The translations under genes were made by a program, and so were the position numbers. Positions 53,640 through 61,242 of a DNA stretch of 64,000 bases are shown here, in pieces. The DNA lies in NCBI GenBank assembly GCA_022564195.1, contig JADFLW010000003.1, positions 12,747 through 76,746 on the forward strand. Reading direction: 5' to 3'. Under the pieces are notes generated by a model that was given only the letters and a program-made list of their open reading frames with translations, was not told the origin of the DNA and ran no database searches. Each line of letters opens with the position of its first letter. Position 1 is the stretch's first letter. The DNA comes from Patescibacteria group bacterium. Lineage in GTDB: Bacteria; Patescibacteriota; Microgenomatia; UBA1400; Chisholmbacteraceae.

Positions 53640-53647
53640 AAGTCTTT

Positions 53648-53679
53648 CTCCTTTCCTAGTGGGCCTCAGGCCCAACCGG
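53648..53679 (-). promoter_or_regulatory. Leader hairpin + SD motif (copy 1, before the Rho-like gene)
   Basis: RNA sense: CGGUU-GGGCC-UGA-GGCCC-ACUA-GGAAAGGAG-8 nt-GUG. Confidence 0.6.
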
Positions 53680-53720
53680 TCAGTCCGTTTTCCAGTCATT
53701 GCTGGATTGGGAACAGGCTA

Positions 53721-53750
53721 CCCTCTAGTAGTGGGCCTCTGGTCCAAAAG
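53721..53750 (-). promoter_or_regulatory. Leader hairpin motif (extra upstream copy, imperfect)
   Basis: RNA sense: UUGGACC-AGA-GGCCC-ACUACUAGAGGG, with one mismatch in the stem. Confidence 0.45.
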
Positions 53751-53996
53751 GAAATCTCTAGAGAGCATTCCGTTCCCAATCCGTACGCGTTCTTATTTGG
53801 TTGTCAAGGAGCTAATGCGAAGCATAAGCTCCGCACCCGCCAATATTTTTCGAGGGAGTATACGGCTGACTAAGCAGTAAGCCGACCATCGATAAAATAT
53901 GGTGGGAAAGTGCTATCCCGCTCAAGCGGGATCCAAATGCCCGCCCCAACAAACGCCAAATGTCTGTTTGCAGGCGTCTTATAAATTGTCAATTTT

Positions 53997-54063
53997 CCTC
54001 TGTTTCGCCCTCCGTAGCTTTAGCGTAGGGGGCTCATCAGTCAGCCTTTGGCTGAAACAGAAA
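53997..54063 (-). ncRNA. Hammerhead ribozyme motif, type III (HHR-C)
   Basis: RNA sense: UUUCUGU-U|UCAGCC-AAA-GGCUGA-CUGAUGA-GCCCCCUACGCUAAAGCUACGGAGGGC-GAAA-CAGAGG. Full catalytic core. Stems I and II are closed and stem III is open. Confidence 0.8.
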
Positions 54064-54225
54064 ACAACACAACAAAATCAAACTACAACCCCCTTCACAC
54101 AAACAAACAAACAAACAATTCATCAACCCCGCAAATGGGATTGAGATGTCTGCCGAATTTCGGTGAAGAGAGGGTGAGGGAGGGATCCCAAACTTCGGGA
54201 TCCCATTCCCATGTCAACGTCCCTC

Positions 54226-54576
54226 TTAGGACCGCCACGGTCTTCGGCCTATCCATTCGGCTGTTGGGAGGTCATTCCCGCGCCATCGTCCGTTGGATCG
54301 CAATGGATCCTCATTGACGACCTGACGTAAAAGCCCAATGGAAAGGGCGATCGCGCCGATGATGCCAACGAAAACGGCCAGGAAGCTCGAAACCAAACGC
54401 GAGAGTAGTGGAATGGACTCCACCAAATCTCGCTGAGCCGACGTTAACTCGCCGCCCGACGGAAAGCCAAATGCCGCAAACACATGAAGCGCGAATATGC
54501 CTCCCAGGAAAGGTAGGAGCAAATGAGGCCGATGAAAAGTGCTAAATGGACTCGGAAGTACCAGTCCGAAAACCAT
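54226..54576 (-). CDS. Small two-TM membrane protein (gene model uncertain)
   Basis: 116 aa. SD-like GAGGAG lies 9 nt before the ATG. Two hydrophobic spans (LLLPFLGGIFALHVFAAFGF, VSSFLAVFVGIIGAIALSIGLL). Overlaps the alternative model 54444-54677 in another frame. Confidence 0.4.
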   Translation of the reverse strand: MVFGLVLPSPFSTFHRPHLLLPFLGGIFALHVFAAFGFPSGGELTSAQRDLVESIPLLSRLVSSFLAVFVGIIGAIALSIGLLRQVVNEDPLRSNGRWRGNDLPTAEWIGRRPWRS

Positions 54577-58407: not shown

Positions 58408-58416
58408 GCACCGCCA

Positions 58417-60717
58417 TCACCACTGGCGTCCGGTGACATTCAGGATGCTGTCCGGAATGTCGTTGATCAGGTTGTAGTACACTTCGTCCCGATCCACCGG
58501 ATTCCGCACGATGATGCGGTAATACGGCATCTTCCGGAACCAGAGTTCCAAGGGGAAGGATTCGGCAAACCCCTCGATGAACGCCTTGACCTGATCGACC
58601 GTGTGCGCCGTAGCCACGAACCAGATGCGATCCTTATGGATCCCGTCCAGGGCATACACGCACCAGTCGCGTCCTCGCATGCCGATATCGTGGGGGATCA
58701 TGCCCAGCTCTTCATGCTTAGTGAGCGCCGGCCAGGCGTAGATGTCTTCGATGGTCAGCGAACAGATCGGGGGCGTCGGCCACTCATAGCCGGCATACCC
58801 GGTCTCCCACTCCTCATACTCGGGCGTCACTCCCTCGATATCGTCGGGCGGGACTGCCCAGTTCCTGAAGCGGAGGTTGAACTCCTCCAGATCAGCGAGC
58901 ACGTAGTGGGAGTAGGCGAAACTCTTGATCGAAGGCATGAGAAGCTCTGGCATACCGACGAACTTGCCCGTCTTCCACCATTGCTTTGCCTTGGCTTGAA
59001 CCCGGGCGCGTGCCTGCGCTTCTACCTTGCGCATCAGTTCCATCTGGTCCTCGACGGTGTGCGCATCTGCGATGCTCACCACGTTGATGTCACCACCGTG
59101 GTGCTTGACCCAGTTGATGGCACCCTCTTGCCTGGCAGTCGTCAAGGCAACACGCTTGCCGAAGGGGCCGACCTGGTTGCCGCCGAGGGCAGCGTCCCAA
59201 GTGGTCTTCCCGCGTTCACCTTTGCCAATGAGCAGGAGATGTTTGTAATTCTCCCGATCGATGAAGACCGGATGCCCGGTCTCCTCGTCTTTGCCCCAGT
59301 AGTGGGTACCCTGGATCTCGCCGATCCCGTTGACCGTCGAGACCAGCCCGTGCAGCAGCTCATCAGCACCAGTCGTAACCGTGTGCCGGAACCGAGTCAG
59401 GGGATAGTCCAAGATCGGATCCAGTGGCGGTGCCCCAGGAATCATTTTCCGGAACGCCTTCTGCAGCTGGTCAAACAGCCCCGTGACTCTGTGCCACTCT
59501 CCCAGGTTGCTGAGCCTGAGCTCAACATCGTCGAACTTGGGCATCCGCCCGTTTTCGATCTGGGAGGAGGTGCGGAGGAGCGTCGTGATGTACAGCTCTC
59601 GGGATTGAAGATCACCCTCAAACCACGGCAGCTTGACGCGCTCACACTGAATCCAGATGTCCAGATCCAGCTCCGGGTCAAGTAGATCCTGCAGAAACTC
59701 GTGCGGGAACGGACCCTTCCAGATCCTGTAGGCGCGATCGCCCAAGATGTAGTAGTCATGCCGCCATTTCGGGCGGATCGGGCAAGCAACCTCCAGGGGA
59801 GGCAGTGGTCGTTCAGCCAGCTTGATCGGCCGGCGGTGAATCACCGAGTGCAGGAACGAACCGAACAGCTGATAGGGCAGCACCAAGCCGCCCATCGCCG
59901 CCGAAGTCCCGCGACTACCGATGAACGCACCCGAGAGACCAGTAATGATCAGGTTCCTCTCGTAGAGTTCCTTCCCATCATAGCCCTGTTGGTAGTCACC
60001 CAGGGCAGCGTCTTGGATCTCGTCGATCAGAATCTTATAGGGGCGATTCCCCTGACGCCTGATCTCGTCCAGATGTCTCTTGAAAGGTTCCACGATCATC
60101 GGCGAGTTGAGAAGGAGCATGGTGATGACGTTGCCAAGATGGGAGTCACCCCAATGGTGTAACATCAAGTTGATACCCGCCACCACATGACGTGTGCCGT
60201 CCTCGTCAGGCACGGTATATCCGTGCTGGAGCGGTCGATTGTGAAACACAACCGATCGCCATTTCTTGCGAGTTGCGGTCGGATCGCTGTCAGCCTTCTT
60301 TCGCCAATTGGATGGCCAAAGGCGAGCCAGAGTGGCAAACAGTCCTTTTCGATCCGAAAGCTCGAGCGGAGCGACCATCAGCATATTGCCGTAGCGTGTT
60401 TCTGCGGTCGCGCGAAGCCCCAAGATTTCTTCAGCGGTTCCCTCGTCAACATTGGGATCCCTTTTCTTGCGGGCTGAGATCCTCAGCGGTTCACGCTGAG
60501 GTTTGCTCCCCATTTTCTCTTCCATTACGGAAGGAAGAAGGGGCGCCGGTGTCCTCACTCCCCGAGCGAGCATATGGCCAACCTCTGGCAGTTCCGGCTC
60601 TGGTTGTTCCAGATCCGGTTGTACCGCCTCCGGTTGTTCCACACTGTGGTCAGCCTCTGGCTGTGGCTGTACCACAGTCCCGTCAGGGTGAACCTCTGCC
60701 TGTGCGTCGGTATTCAT
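58417..60717 (-). CDS. Large P-loop NTPase, VirB4/TraC-class candidate
   Basis: ATG 60717 (SD GGAGG 4 nt upstream) gives about 766 aa. Walker A LLLIGKGERGKTT sits about two thirds along. The N-terminus is acidic and Pro/Glu-rich. Size and neighbours (small 2-TM gene before, hydrolase after) fit T4SS VirB4-like ATPases, but the family is not verified. Confidence 0.5.
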   Translation of the reverse strand: MNTDAQAEVHPDGTVVQPQPEADHSVEQPEAVQPDLEQPEPELPEVGHMLARGVRTPAPLLPSVMEEKMGSKPQREPLRISARKKRDPNVDEGTAEEILGLRATAETRYGNMLMVAPLELSDRKGLFATLARLWPSNWRKKADSDPTATRKKWRSVVFHNRPLQHGYTVPDEDGTRHVVAGINLMLHHWGDSHLGNVITMLLLNSPMIVEPFKRHLDEIRRQGNRPYKILIDEIQDAALGDYQQGYDGKELYERNLIITGLSGAFIGSRGTSAAMGGLVLPYQLFGSFLHSVIHRRPIKLAERPLPPLEVACPIRPKWRHDYYILGDRAYRIWKGPFPHEFLQDLLDPELDLDIWIQCERVKLPWFEGDLQSRELYITTLLRTSSQIENGRMPKFDDVELRLSNLGEWHRVTGLFDQLQKAFRKMIPGAPPLDPILDYPLTRFRHTVTTGADELLHGLVSTVNGIGEIQGTHYWGKDEETGHPVFIDRENYKHLLLIGKGERGKTTWDAALGGNQVGPFGKRVALTTARQEGAINWVKHHGGDINVVSIADAHTVEDQMELMRKVEAQARARVQAKAKQWWKTGKFVGMPELLMPSIKSFAYSHYVLADLEEFNLRFRNWAVPPDDIEGVTPEYEEWETGYAGYEWPTPPICSLTIEDIYAWPALTKHEELGMIPHDIGMRGRDWCVYALDGIHKDRIWFVATAHTVDQVKAFIEGFAESFPLELWFRKMPYYRIIVRNPVDRDEVYYNLINDIPDSILNVTGRQW

Positions 60718-60721
60718 ACGA

Positions 60722-60756
60722 CCTCCTAATGGGTAGTCGGCCTCTTGGCCGAACCG
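60722..60756 (-). promoter_or_regulatory. Leader hairpin + SD motif (copy 4)
   Basis: RNA sense: CGGUU-CGGCC-AAGA-GGCCG-ACUACCCAUUAGGAGG-4 nt-AUG. Confidence 0.6.
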
Positions 60757-60996
60757 AAAGACTTTTCGCGTCATTGCGCGATTGGCCCAAAAATGATCCC
60801 GACAACGTCGGGGCCACATCAGGGCCAACCGCCCGACACGCAGACTCTCTAGGAGATCTCAAAAATCCAATAATTCCTCGCTCTATTCTTGTTGTGTTGT
60901 CAAAGTGCTATCCCGATGAGATGTCGGGATTTCATTGCCCGCATACGCAAACGCTTCTCGTTCACAACGCGGGCCGTAAATAACTCAGGTTGTCAA

Positions 60997-61086
60997 GTTT
61001 GTCTGTTTCGCCCTTCGACTGCCTGTCCTACTGACAGTCCGCTCAGGGGCTCATCAGGTCCGACGTATAGCGGACAACAAACAAAC
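60997..61086 (-). ncRNA. Hammerhead ribozyme motif, type III (HHR-A)
   Basis: RNA sense: GUUUGUUUGU-U|GUCCG-CUAUACGU-CGGAC-CUGAUGA-[41-nt stem II GCCC...GGGC]-GAAA-CAGACAAAC. 10-bp stem III. Confidence 0.8.
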
Positions 61087-61242
61087 ACAAACAAGAAGAA
61101 GCGACACTCTCTACCAAAGACAAAAAACCAACAAACCAACCCCGCTACTGGGATTGAAAAGGTTCTTTGCTTGAGCAAAAGAGTGAAGGTGGATAGAGAG
61201 GGTTCAAACATCGAACCCCCTCCTATCACCTGTGCATTCCCA

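Follow-up and report, generated by a model that had tools for sequence, protein, structure and literature searches.

Ribozyme-bearing spacers in a Patescibacteria genomic island, whose mRNAs appear to mature in the manner of ribosomal RNA

What do three homologous, structured intergenic cassettes do for the genes that they separate? Towards one end of the window (the whole 64,000-nt stretch of DNA analysed here), an initial annotation had described three such cassettes, each with a hammerhead, and had suggested that they share further ordered blocks and form a reusable expression or processing module. The observation is confirmed and is larger than first described, with likeness beyond the hammerhead clear in the cassette alignment. 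Their minus-strand sense, two cassettes beyond the window, a terminal half-cassette and a structured leader motif (three copies) had been overlooked.

Island and cassette architecture

Cassettes A, B and C are read from the minus strand, the sense strand of the genes, within a GC-rich genomic island of an ultra-small Patescibacteria bacterium; the island runs from about 51934 to beyond 64000 and is closed at 51934-52199 by the half-cassette. The minus strand carries every gene and motif of the island, and gene-block order and orientation are constant across four elements. The base composition of the island is foreign, tRNA genes adjoin it, and it contains a tandem duplication of 3564 nt. The last unit, C, encodes a conserved but divergent Rho paralogue whose top PDB matches are all Rho (E 2e-12); L002 also codes for a protein that has a domain like the RNA polymerase alpha-CTD.

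Read as RNA, the cassettes run from the stop codon through terminator-like hairpin(s), hairpin H2 (in A and C), the trailer arm, a type III hammerhead, hairpin H3, a boxA-like GCWCYUURAMA, the leader arm, a 75-nt leader fold and a small hairpin to the Shine-Dalgarno and start codon. As judged from alignment, these untranslated structured spacers of 400-600 nt are paralogous, ordered and multi-module, and lie on the transcribed strand. The 21-nt block reported as identical in A (60888-60908) and B (56707-56727) is present within a 46-nt block of 83% identity (family D8), and A and B also have in common a 67-nt block (81% identity, D4) and a 45-nt block (89%, D7). The 20-nt box noted at 61138-61157 and 54125-54144 belongs to H2. 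The annotated hairpins (60909-60929; about 53914-53931) are likewise present, with GGGAUAGCACUUU after each of them on the minus strand; after H3 of cassette C, AGCACUUUCCCACC is a degenerate second boxA-like half, an arrangement also seen in cassette c1.

51963-51970, minus: half copy of H2, UCAAUCCC, just 5' of the terminal trailer arm
52002-52032, minus: terminator-like 14-bp hairpin with U-run, after the last gene
52200-53639, minus: unit C gene, Rho paralogue, 479 aa, GTG start
53643-53681, minus: P3 hairpin (GGGCC-UGA-GGCCC, then ACUAG), Shine-Dalgarno and GTG start of unit C (families D1/D2)
53899-53931, minus: H3 hairpin AUCCCGC-UUGA-GCGGGAU, then AGCACUUUCCCACC (D20)
53996-54063, minus: hammerhead C, predicted cut after GUU between 54056 and 54055 (RF00008, 37.3 bits, E 4e-5)
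54123-54144, minus: H2 hairpin CAAUCCC-AUUUGC-GGGGUUG (D3)
54182-54204, minus: hairpin past the unit B stop codon, GGGAUCCC-GAAGUUU-GGGAUCCC
54688-54718, minus: P3-type hairpin with Shine-Dalgarno, internal to unit B and without boxA (D1)
56541-56578, minus: P3 hairpin, Shine-Dalgarno and GTG start of unit B
56783-56854, minus: hammerhead B, predicted cut after GUC between 56848 and 56847
56897-56937, minus: two hairpins past the unit A stop codon
56944-60717, minus: unit A genes, ATPase then M23 membrane protein
58417-60717, minus: P-loop ATPase of unit A, 766 aa
56944-58407, minus: membrane protein of unit A with M23 peptidase domain, 487 aa
60720-60755, minus: P3 hairpin, Shine-Dalgarno (GGAGG) and ATG start of unit A
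60909-60929, minus: H3 hairpin abutting boxA on its 5' side, in the boxB position
60997-61086, minus: hammerhead A, predicted cut after GUU between 61076 and 61075
61136-61157, minus: H2 hairpin CAAUCCC-AGUAGC-GGGGUUG
61188-61230, minus: long hairpin past the stop codon of the unit preceding cassette A

The window holds three canonical type III hammerhead cores, and three distant relatives (ATPase 47, 30 and about 23% identical) have one each, syntenic and just upstream of the ATPase gene; boxA and arms recur in these relatives as well. All six adopt a three-way junction in unconstrained folding, with covariation in stems I and II. They are predicted to be self-cleaving and would presumably act in vivo; some trailers are without a hammerhead. 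Clustered hammerheads that flank genes have a precedent (PMC3088659). Being repeated, intergenic and known from metagenomic contigs, the sequences might be taken for functionless selfish or neutral MITE-like repeats or for assembly artefacts. Either origin is scarcely credible here, given that the element was re-found at at least 99.9% identity in three independent assemblies, that module positions are kept, with compensatory changes, in relatives of only 23-47% protein identity, and that no copies occur outside the island.

BoxA-like elements and the leader fold

The published boxA consensus is GYTCTTTAANA (PMC5725501). Relatives with ATPases 23-47% identical carry GCTCTTTAACA or GCTCTTTAAAA at the corresponding site, an exact fit, and about 60 kb of related loci contain six perfect matches, each of them sense-strand and situated in a cassette leader. 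In the window, GCWCYTTRAMA occurs three times (expected 0.66), only in cassettes A, B and C and on the minus strand, with zero occurrences in 52 kb of host sequence; copies are sense-strand throughout (window 3/3, L005 5/5, L002 3/3, L007 7/7, L008 2/2). Wherever the leader motif is detected, boxA lies at most about 100 nt upstream of it. Since the three window copies are off consensus at 2 of 11 positions, that consensus being gamma-proteobacterial and perhaps not the host's, and since at two-mismatch stringency the window shows no excess of the motif, their identification rests on orthology with the perfect copies of the relatives.

53687-53787, minus: leader motif R1, copy C, with insertion in P1a (39.1 bits, E 1.7e-7; outside the training set)
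53802-53812, minus: boxA-like element of cassette C, GCUCCUUGACA, overlapping TTGACAAC at 53800-53807
53985-53992, minus: TTGACAAT, directly 3' of hammerhead C stem III, without a -10 element
56582-56655, minus: leader motif R1, copy B (76.6 bits)
56717-56727, minus: boxA-like element of cassette B, GCACUUUGACA
60762-60836, minus: leader motif R1, copy A (86.4 bits sense, 39.4 antisense)
60898-60908, minus: boxA-like element of cassette A, GCACUUUGACA
60989-60996, minus: TTGACAAC, directly 3' of hammerhead A stem III, without a -10 element

The five minus-strand TTGACAAY sites of the initial annotation (53800-53807, 53985-53992, 56715-56722, 60896-60903 and 60989-60996) are all present. The octamer is not enriched in the whole window (seven found, 5.2 expected); notable is that the 12-kb island holds five of the seven, each on the gene strand. 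From their position, three of these five are the 3' half of a boxA-like element. A promoter role had been proposed for them, whereby each cassette would be an independent sigma-70-type expression module with TTGACAA as -35 element; TTGACA is the -35 consensus, five copies stand in spacers on the gene strand, and 400-600 nt could house promoters where no other was found. Such a role is nonetheless quite improbable. Every copy lacks a -10-like hexamer 16-18 nt downstream, and a sigma-70 consensus scan returned three promoter-like sites in the region vs 4.4 expected, none of them at the cassette boxes. In orthologous boxes the G of TTGACA is replaced (TTTAACA or TTTAAAA), the conserved unit being the 11-mer, which fits boxA and not a -35 hexamer. 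Moreover, the bases 3' of the box and a distant complementary stretch vary together, for which a promoter would have no need. The module first proposed was thus right in spirit as regards ordered, paralogous, ribozyme-bearing spacers, but not as regards promoters.

Leader motif R1 spans 75 nt, with helices P1, P1a and P2 and a P2 loop CRANGA. In the training set (n=9), 95% of cells are paired and 12 of 18 pairs have changed on both sides, values that 0 of 500 shuffles reach, whereas slid controls pair at 27-46%. Seven of the 16 sense-strand copies are outside that set, and these are 97% paired. No Rfam family matched the fold, and its covariance model found zero copies in 52 kb of host sequence. 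Judged by covariation, R1 is a new conserved leader fold; as a guess, it could coordinate the units by binding a protein or by serving as a site of processing.

A boxA, a spacer and a hairpin with an invariant loop and covarying 4-bp stem resemble a protein operator, and it could be hypothesized that boxA and the P2 hairpin (its CRANGA loop a boxB analogue) act as lambda-like nut sites recruiting a dedicated N-like or other RNA-binding protein of the island, instead of relying solely on the rRNA-type complex. Candidates would be a small ORF, the alpha-CTD-like protein encoded in L002, or the conserved Rho paralogue. This reading is improbable, as no N-like protein was identified, P2 lies about 100 nt from boxA vs roughly 10 nt in lambda, and the leader motif is far bigger than boxB. 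It is compatible with an rRNA-type explanation and does not exclude it.

Complementary arms at the two ends of each block

For the leader arm, which follows boxA, the best-matching partner is found where its own gene block ends, 0.9-4 kb further along the RNA; if another hammerhead follows there, the partner lies immediately 5' of its cut. The plus-strand C/A-rich tracts of the initial annotation are indeed present, and are antisense to G/U-rich RNA tracts directly 5' of the cleavage sites; with the CTTGTTGTGTTG part of the 21-nt block, they are, by their complementarity, the predicted two arms of long-range RNA helices.

51934-51955, minus: trailer arm of unit C (last unit), at the island end; 18-nt exact complement in a 20-bp duplex with 53780-53805
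53780-53805, minus: leader arm of unit C, starting within the 3' part of boxA; dG -28.5, best partner in the whole element, 1857 nt downstream
54062-54081, minus: trailer arm of unit B, pairing with 56695-56720; dG -22.3, best partner, 2646 nt downstream
56695-56720, minus: leader arm of unit B, GACAACACAACAAGAUUAUAGAAAGG
56847-56877, minus: trailer arm of unit A, CCCUCGCUCUACUUGUUGUGUUUUUCUGUCG, pairing with 60876-60901
60876-60901, minus: leader arm of unit A, GACAACACAACAAGAAUAGAGCGAGG; dG -34.6 (24 bp), best partner, 4031 nt downstream
61079-61103, minus: trailer arm of the unit preceding cassette A; dG -26.9, best partner, 3163 nt downstream; the boxA and leader arm of that unit lie just past the window end at about window-equivalent 64266

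By duplex energy, about 13 of 15 boxA arms are best matched, among all sense-strand positions, by a site downstream of them in the spacer closing their own gene block; in the window element alone, 5/5 arms pair best with their own block-end spacer. A stricter measure, the longest exact complement, places 9 of 15 arms in the block-end zone, which is 1-5% of each element. Exact runs of 18, 18, 15, 14 and 13 nt were equalled by 0, 0, 0, 1 and 2 of 1000 shuffled arms (0/1000 for the 18-nt run of unit C), and several of the 15 arms examined were not significant in this exact-complement test. Among the weak arms, L007 1130 ranks third and L008 621 is without a partner. Arm sequences vary between units while complementarity persists, and in the orthologous ATPase-M23 unit the arm flanks covary across three elements (ACA/UGU, CCA/UGG, UCG/CGA).

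Several C/A-type arms have a common core, and the G/U tract of their own cassette is also a possible partner. Pairing could then be a local clamp of 100-300 nt between that tract and the boxA-proximal arm, with no kilobase-range helix, lengthening stem III and enclosing the ribozyme in a domain that aids or regulates its folding. Local inverted repeats do surround hammerhead B (11/11 nt across 138 nt), occur in L002 (12/13 across 144 nt; 13/13 across 103 nt) and in cassette c1 (17/17 across 298 nt), and give z-scores of -2 to -6. A solely local clamp is unlikely, as the cognate distant partner is never worse and usually better (cassette B trailer, -34.6 vs -19.8 to -22.8; cassette A trailer, -26.9 vs -22.8). 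Each L002 tract is perfect with the preceding boxA arm and imperfect with that of its own cassette, the arms of unit C and of three L007 units are unique and have a good complement only downstream, and the c1 repeat is accounted for by the tandem duplication.

The leader-trailer duplexes comprise 251 Watson-Crick and 11 G-U pairs, and their sense and antisense energies are similar; with so few G-U pairs and such energies, wobble pairing is no proof of pairing in RNA over inverted repeats in DNA. Near-perfect inverted repeats of 11-24 bp, in an island with the composition, tRNA neighbours and duplication described above, might serve recombination or inversion, or might bound nested mobile cassettes around gene blocks. 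That is very unlikely: the repeat differs in every unit and therefore offers no common recombinase site, the island yielded neither a recombinase nor a transposase, block order and orientation are identical in the four elements, and the arms keep a fixed register with two RNA elements of the sense strand, the first arm with boxA and the second with the hammerhead cleavage site.

Likeness to ribosomal RNA operons

Altogether, the preferred reading, to which a probability of about 0.55 is given, is that each cassette is an untranslated spacer in a long minus-strand transcript, connecting a block's 3' trailer with the 5' leader of its successor; that the units are transcribed together is an assumption, because no promoter was located. 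From these sequence features, island mRNAs appear to be matured in the manner of ribosomal RNA. BoxA would recruit the host NusB/NusE antitermination complex, allowing RNA polymerase to pass the 400-600 nt spacer unstopped by Rho or hairpins, and would hold the adjacent leader arm close to the RNA exit channel, as in rRNA operons. Once the trailer arm leaves the polymerase, 0.9-4 kb further on, the arms could anneal into a leader-trailer helix, after which hammerhead cleavage would release an operon-length mRNA with paired ends, and the following boxA would re-arm the polymerase. Trailer arm and hammerhead stem III overlap by 0-9 nt, and this overlap could block cleavage instead of aiding it.

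Long untranslated CRISPR transcripts are shielded from Rho by boxA (PMC7665894). In rrn operons, the order is boxB-boxA-boxC (PMC8632103; PMC10250234) together with a leader-trailer helix, and the cassettes present a hairpin, boxA and a putative helix strand in the same order.

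The island, its proteins and its spacers

Up to about 51.9 kb, the window consists of host DNA with a G+C content of about 0.48, which includes two features close to its border:

51497-51572, tRNA-Val gene
ending at 51910, cupin gene

Beyond about 51.9 kb, the G+C content is 0.55-0.59 and every gene lies on the minus strand. This island was recovered at 99.9% identity or more in three independent ENA assemblies, so its inter-unit cassettes are not assembly artefacts, and it extends about 7 kb past the window end, where it includes a 3564-nt tandem duplication. The duplicated copies (99.8% identical; locus L004 1-6406, window-equivalent positions above ~64800) span a unit with genes of 462, 110, 142 and 64 aa together with its cassette, and two contigs terminate in or close to them. 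Locus L001, likewise past the window end, has at 3310-4100 an A+T-rich stretch of ~800 nt that carries small ORFs in both orientations; it separates a unit's trailer from the boxA that follows and looks like a secondary insertion.

Pfam, PHROGs and NCBIfam gave no name for most island proteins, and phage structural genes were not found in the island. The protein encoded at 56944-58407 carries an M23 peptidase domain at its C-terminus, and a 766-aa protein contains a P-loop with weak EccC/FtsK similarity around the Walker A motif. The last island gene (52200-53639, minus strand) encodes a divergent Rho paralogue, whose top PDB matches were all Rho (E 2e-12, residues 150-400). Because the structures predicted by AlphaFold were too poor (pLDDT 31.5 for the ATPase, 40.4 for the Rho-like protein), profile-against-PDB searches took their place.

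Relatives of the 766-aa ATPase are rare. A word-indexed search of 5.8 billion proteins returned only two clusters, and a profile search of the same index only the two sequences already known; no relatives were found in viral contigs, nor in GTDB genomes with the first search patterns, and protein P0003 was not found in JGI metagenomes. An exhaustive HMMER search yielded 56 remote relatives, including one encoded in a genome of candidate division WWE3. Through this search and two single-protein locus look-ups, related loci were located whose ATPases are 47% (L002), 30% (L007) and ~23% (L008, the WWE3 genome) identical to that of the window. The Rho paralogue of L007 (19547-20995) forms its own boxA-led unit, and L008 encodes a related ATPase (14746-16056). 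In L002, a 243-aa island protein (5111-5842) has a C-terminal domain like that of the RNA polymerase alpha CTD (TIGR02027, E 3e-10). tRNA genes adjoin the island downstream in the window (51497-51572) and upstream in L002 (3185-3546, separated from the island by a scaffold gap, a run of N) and L007 (409-557); no integrase was seen.

The cassettes are the spacers from the stop codon of one gene block to the start codon of the next:

60718-61242, minus strand, cassette A, followed by start codon ATG at 60717
56538-56943, minus strand, cassette B, followed by start codon GTG at 56537
53640-54225, minus strand, cassette C, followed by start codon GTG at 53639

They had been described as three homologous multi-module cassettes in the initial annotation, and all the blocks listed there are present where they were placed. 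Likeness reaches beyond the hammerhead, long stretches of A and B being 81-89% identical outside the ribozyme; C shares a smaller number of blocks, with their order kept. The C/A tracts noted on the plus strand are G/U-rich RNA on the minus strand, located just 5' of the ribozyme cleavage sites. The cassettes, whose motifs are conserved in order and strand, are very probably functional RNA modules of the sense strand.

Hammerheads and putative boxA sites

Each cassette holds one hammerhead, and two of these are directly followed by a copy of TTGACAA:

60997-61086, minus strand, type III hammerhead A, cleavage triplet GUU
56783-56854, minus strand, type III hammerhead B, cleavage triplet GUC
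53996-54063, minus strand, type III hammerhead C, cleavage triplet GUU
60989-60996 and 53985-53992, minus strand, TTGACAA copies directly 3' of hammerhead stem III

L002, L007 and L008 each have a type III hammerhead at the syntenic site (small membrane-protein gene / ATPase gene, then M23 gene). The three window hammerheads and these three orthologues share the conserved core CUGANGA...GAAA, the A15.1-U16.1 pair and a NUH triplet (GUU, GUC or GUA). In 6/6, the unconstrained minimum-free-energy fold is a three-way junction with stems I and II closed and stem III open, and stems I and II covary across the six sequences. Hammerheads A, B and C are predicted to be self-cleaving. Scores against RF00008 (37.3 for C, 20.5 for A, 26.2 for L007; B unreported) fall under the Rfam gathering threshold of 48.5 bits because of long insertions in stem II. 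Work from 2011 described clustered hammerheads next to genes of prophage regions and suggested that they process long transcripts (PMC3088659), so the hammerhead part of the cassettes is of a known kind. Two further look-alikes, CUGAGGA...GAAG upstream of two boxA sites in L007 and CUGAUGA in cassette c1, do not satisfy the hammerhead core and were rejected. In the host part of the window, a glmS ribozyme (RF00234, 55.8 bits vs a gathering score of 37; 32506-32716, plus strand) with a 56-nt insertion mid-RNA lies directly 5' of the glmS gene (32824-34605).

The octamer TTGACAAY is present at 53800-53807, 53985-53992, 56715-56722, 60896-60903 and 60989-60996, as first annotated, but taken alone it is not enriched in the window (7 occurrences vs 5.2 expected). 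The suggestion that these boxes act as promoters did not hold. No -10 hexamer is found 16-18 nt away, which led to the rejection of a sigma-70 promoter at these sites, and a promoter scan was empty at each box. Over the region, the sigma-70 scan gave 3 sites vs 4.4 expected, none of them in the cassettes on the sense strand, and no promoter was located for the island.

The relatives point to another identity for the box. At the TTGACAA position, they read GAGCTCTTTAACAAC, GCACTTTAAAAAC, GGGCTCTTTAACAAT or GTGCTCTTTAAAATT, which hold GCTCTTTAACA or GCTCTTTAAAA. Both agree at every position with GYTCTTTAANA, the boxA consensus obtained for the site bound by NusB/NusE (PMC5725501). Six such perfect matches occur in ~60 kb of related loci (L002, L007, L008), all on the sense strand and in cassette leaders. 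The window copies (GCACTTTGACA twice and GCTCCTTGACA once; in RNA letters GCACUUUGACA twice and GCUCCUUGACA once) match 9/11 consensus positions, which is not significant alone in the window; since they differ at two positions, they are identified by orthology with the perfect copies. In the 64 kb, the pattern GCWCYTTRAMA has only three occurrences (0.66 expected), each on the minus strand and one per cassette (A, B, C). When this relaxed pattern is followed through five non-redundant sequences (the window, L005, L002, L007 and L008), 20/20 sites lie on the gene strand and 19/20 in spacers, the remaining one being within an ORF and possibly spurious. Judged by sequence, the TTGACAA-containing box is probably a boxA rather than a -35 element. 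It is repeated at each unit (five in the element of the window, up to seven in L007), and no rRNA operon was found in the window or the fetched loci. Outside rRNA operons, known boxA sites include those of the suhB leader and those ahead of CRISPR arrays, which block Rho termination of long untranslated RNA (PMC5725501, PMC7665894). It is intriguing that a Rho-like helicase is encoded here beside reiterated putative anti-Rho signals.

Leader-trailer complementarity and a conserved leader fold

The bases that follow boxA vary by cassette (CACAACAAGAA..., AAUAGGGAUGUAGCGGC, CCAAAUAAGAACGCG, AAGAAAGACCGAAA, UCGCAACAAGAAGAA). Each 26-nt boxA arm was scanned by duplex energy against the whole sense strand of its element. 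With few exceptions, the most stable partner of this leader arm lies downstream by 0.9-4 kb, within the spacer closing its own gene block; where a hammerhead follows, the partner directly precedes its cut.

Leader arms and trailer partners, with distance and duplex energy (minus strand)
boxA at ~64266, beyond the window end, with trailer 61079-61103; +3163 nt; dG -26.9; 5' of hammerhead A
leader 60876-60901 with trailer 56847-56877; +4031 nt; dG -34.6; 24 bp, 5' of hammerhead B
leader 56695-56720 with trailer 54062-54081; +2646 nt; dG -22.3; 5' of hammerhead C
leader 53780-53805 with trailer 51934-51955; +1857 nt; dG -28.5; 18-nt exact complement, past the last gene

From this fourth pair, the end of the island is defined, and the isolated GGGATTGA at 51963-51970, present as first annotated, is explained as part of a terminal half-cassette. 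Duplex energy places the best partner in the cognate trailer for ~13/15 arms. The longest exact complement lies in the cognate trailer zone, which makes up 1-5% of each element, for 9/15 arms, and for a tenth (in L008) 10 nt outside the zone as drawn. Of 1000 shuffled arms, 0, 0, 0, 1 and 2 attained exact runs as long as 18, 18, 15, 14 and 13 nt, respectively; five arms are individually at or below 2 in 1000. Moreover, arms differ between units and between orthologous units with complementarity kept: in the orthologous ATPase-M23 unit of three elements, the helix flanks co-change as ACA/UGU, CCA/UGG and UCG/CGA, and a further compensatory difference is GGGAUG/CAUCCC vs GGUAUG/CAU-ACC.

Another idea considered was that the G/U tract pairs only locally, with the arm in its own cassette. 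Such pairing is real but weaker than the cognate distant one, and in L002 each G/U tract fits the arm of the preceding boxA perfectly and that of its own cassette imperfectly. The short-range repeats within cassettes arise because neighbouring units share a C/A core and, in c1, because of the tandem duplication. The duplexes are nearly all Watson-Crick (251 Watson-Crick vs 11 G-U pairs), so wobble pairs cannot tell RNA helices from DNA inverted repeats; the reading as RNA derives from a register fixed by boxA and the ribozyme cut, and from an arm sequence that is different in each unit. An integron attC or a MITE was rejected, as neither a shared recombination core nor a recombinase is present. 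The trailer arm overlaps hammerhead stem III by 0-9 nt, which could indicate that it competes with the ribozyme or that it displaces the cleaved product.

Besides the C/A type, a second conserved type of arm is formed by CCGCUACAUCCC and its partner GGGAUGUAGCGG. The trailer-arm word CCGCUACAUCCC recurs at L001 128-275 and 3165-3310, L002 ~6640, and L007 ~6770 and ~15700, and GGGAUGUAGCGG comes after boxA in the element of the window, L002 and L007. This RNA element overlaps coding sequence in L002, where the ATPase-M23 unit has its trailer arm in the last codons of the M23 gene (13625-13640).

A conserved fold separates the leader arm from the ribosome-binding site and is composed of a stem P1, an inner hairpin P1a and then P2. 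P1 has an asymmetric internal loop, 5' GAYGUGG opposite 3' UCAUUUYG, and P2 is a 4-bp hairpin directly 3' of P1 with the loop CRANGA.

60762-60836, minus strand, leader motif of cassette A
56582-56655, minus strand, leader motif of cassette B
53687-53787, minus strand, leader motif of cassette C

Among nine copies from three elements, 95% of cells are paired and 12/18 pairs have changed on both sides; 0/500 shuffles equal these figures, and slid controls pair at 27-46%. A covariance model retrieved 16 sense-strand copies, the seven outside the training set being 97% paired, with scores on the sense strand about twice those on the antisense strand and no copy in the 52 kb of host DNA. Wherever the motif was detected, boxA lies at most ~100 nt upstream. 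Neither the window copies nor the related loci gave a plausible match in Rfam 15 at E up to 10. On this covariation, the leader fold is a new conserved structured RNA motif. A pseudoknot between the P2 loop CRANGA and UCAUUU, the 3' strand of the internal loop, was rejected, with no consistent covariation across the 16 copies.

Hairpin H2, annotated as a 20-nt box shared by A and C, is conserved in A, C, L002 and L007; 93% of its cells can pair, with one double change in four sequences, and since 118/500 shuffles reach the observed value, its covariation is not significant. An intrinsic-terminator scan flags both H2 hairpins and a hairpin at 52002-52032, whose tails are G/U-rich, not U-runs, and terminator-like sites number 18 in the region vs 11.2 expected. 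Six times, a G+C-rich 5-bp hairpin (P3) followed by ACUAC closely precedes the Shine-Dalgarno sequence; one of these sites, at 54688-54718, is internal. Unit B encloses a fourth spacer (338 nt; 54226-54914, minus strand), in which a 19-codon ORF occurs together with a terminator-like hairpin and, next to a Shine-Dalgarno sequence, a P3-type hairpin; it is followed by two overlapping candidate ORFs (54444-54677 and 54226-54576).

A proposed model for island transcripts and its relation to known systems

It is proposed that the island is co-transcribed on the minus strand across several gene blocks, with Nus factors binding each boxA. At each spacer, the trailer arm would anneal to the boxA-tethered leader arm, after which the hammerhead cut, if it occurs in vivo, would free an end-paired mRNA, whose leader fold may have a role of its own. 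The next boxA would then rebuild the antitermination complex, which would carry polymerase across 400-600 nt of untranslated, hairpin-rich RNA otherwise inviting Rho. The full model, joining antitermination, end-pairing and ribozyme cleavage, is given a probability of roughly 55%; it is weakened by the overlap of 0-9 nt between trailer arm and stem III and by the lack of a located promoter.

A far bolder reading holds that the gene blocks are excised as autonomous RNAs, in which case flanking hammerheads would release 2.6-4 kb mRNAs whose ends, held by the helix and a re-formed stem III, are ligated into circles or kept as end-sealed panhandles. These RNAs might be handled by the Rho-like RNA translocase of the island. 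If true, it would amount to viroid- or retrozyme-like processing of bacterial mRNAs. When stem III was re-formed from the two ends of a unit as a test of circularisation, the energies did not discriminate. The reading as autonomous RNAs is considered highly improbable.

The hammerhead, boxA and leader-trailer helix are each known; their arrangement in the cassettes, to which a new leader motif is added, has not been described for mRNAs. If the model of antitermination, end-pairing and ribozyme cleavage is true, a route of bacterial mRNA maturation would have been copied from rRNA biogenesis, with a ribozyme in place of RNase III for the 3' cut and one boxA per operon-length unit. It would give clustered bacterial hammerheads, a question open since 2011, a concrete and testable role, extend boxA antitermination to multi-operon islands and to Patescibacteria, and provide a natural test of leader-to-trailer delivery by the antitermination complex, while a new structured RNA motif, clearly covarying and found at least 16 times, would be added. 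To our knowledge, the RNA biology of Patescibacteria is almost unexplored.

A close parallel is found in rrn operons, whose nut-like sites are ordered as boxB (a hairpin), boxA and boxC, the latter being the 5' strand of the leader-trailer helix with its 3' strand past the rRNA (PMC8632103, PMC10250234). There, boxA bound by NusB/NusE on the polymerase is thought to tether boxC at the RNA exit channel while the trailer is still to emerge (PMC8632103, PMC10250234), and delivery of the leader strand by boxA-Nus to the emerging trailer is carried over from this model to the cassettes. These likewise show the order hairpin H3 (60909-60929 in A), boxA, leader arm, with the 3' strand of the helix kilobases downstream at the unit end, and the signal is repeated per unit, as it is before 16S and before 23S. 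In contrast to rrn, the units are protein-coding blocks with ribosome-binding sites, the leader arm starts within or right after boxA instead of 18-19 nt later, an extra conserved leader fold precedes the ribosome-binding site, and the 3' cut would be made by a hammerhead after the trailer rather than by RNase III in the helix. Because the units encode proteins, the cassettes are likened to the rrn leader-trailer helix but placed outside that family. A hammerhead was engineered after the 16S trailer to define its 3' end in a 2023 study, one of the two cited above, and the natural cassettes share the layout of that construct.

Hammerhead clusters of prophages (Perreault et al. 2011, PMC3088659) resemble those of the island in that several lie in one orientation between single genes or short blocks of them in a region gained horizontally, where they were proposed to cut long transcripts into operon-length mRNAs. 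However, they were described without boxA, leader-trailer arms or a common leader fold, and bacterial examples are mostly type II, whereas all those of the island are type III, in a Patescibacteria bacterium and without phage structural genes. As in the suhB 5' UTR and CRISPR leaders, a sense-strand boxA stands upstream of a long, poorly translated RNA, with protection from Rho termination as its expected role (PMC5725501, PMC7665894). Those sites are single, whereas here boxA recurs per unit with a complementary trailer and often a ribozyme.

Lambda nut sites direct processive antitermination, and RNase III sites of T7 punctuate polycistronic RNA at structured inter-genic sites. The island likewise would combine antitermination and inter-genic punctuation in the transcripts of a mobile element, but no N protein or lambda-type boxB was recognised in it, and cleavage would be RNA-catalysed and not by RNase III. 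In retrozymes and viroid-like RNAs, identical type III hammerheads, which reconstitute on circularisation, delimit short non-coding repeats. A unit of the island would also be an RNA segment between two type III hammerheads, with 5'-OH and 2',3'-cyclic phosphate ends paired together, but the segments here are 2.6-4 kb mRNAs between non-identical ribozymes. For multi-gene constructs, synthetic biologists assemble by hand an insulating ribozyme, an antitermination site and end-pairing, which is the same combination as in the design of the cassettes.
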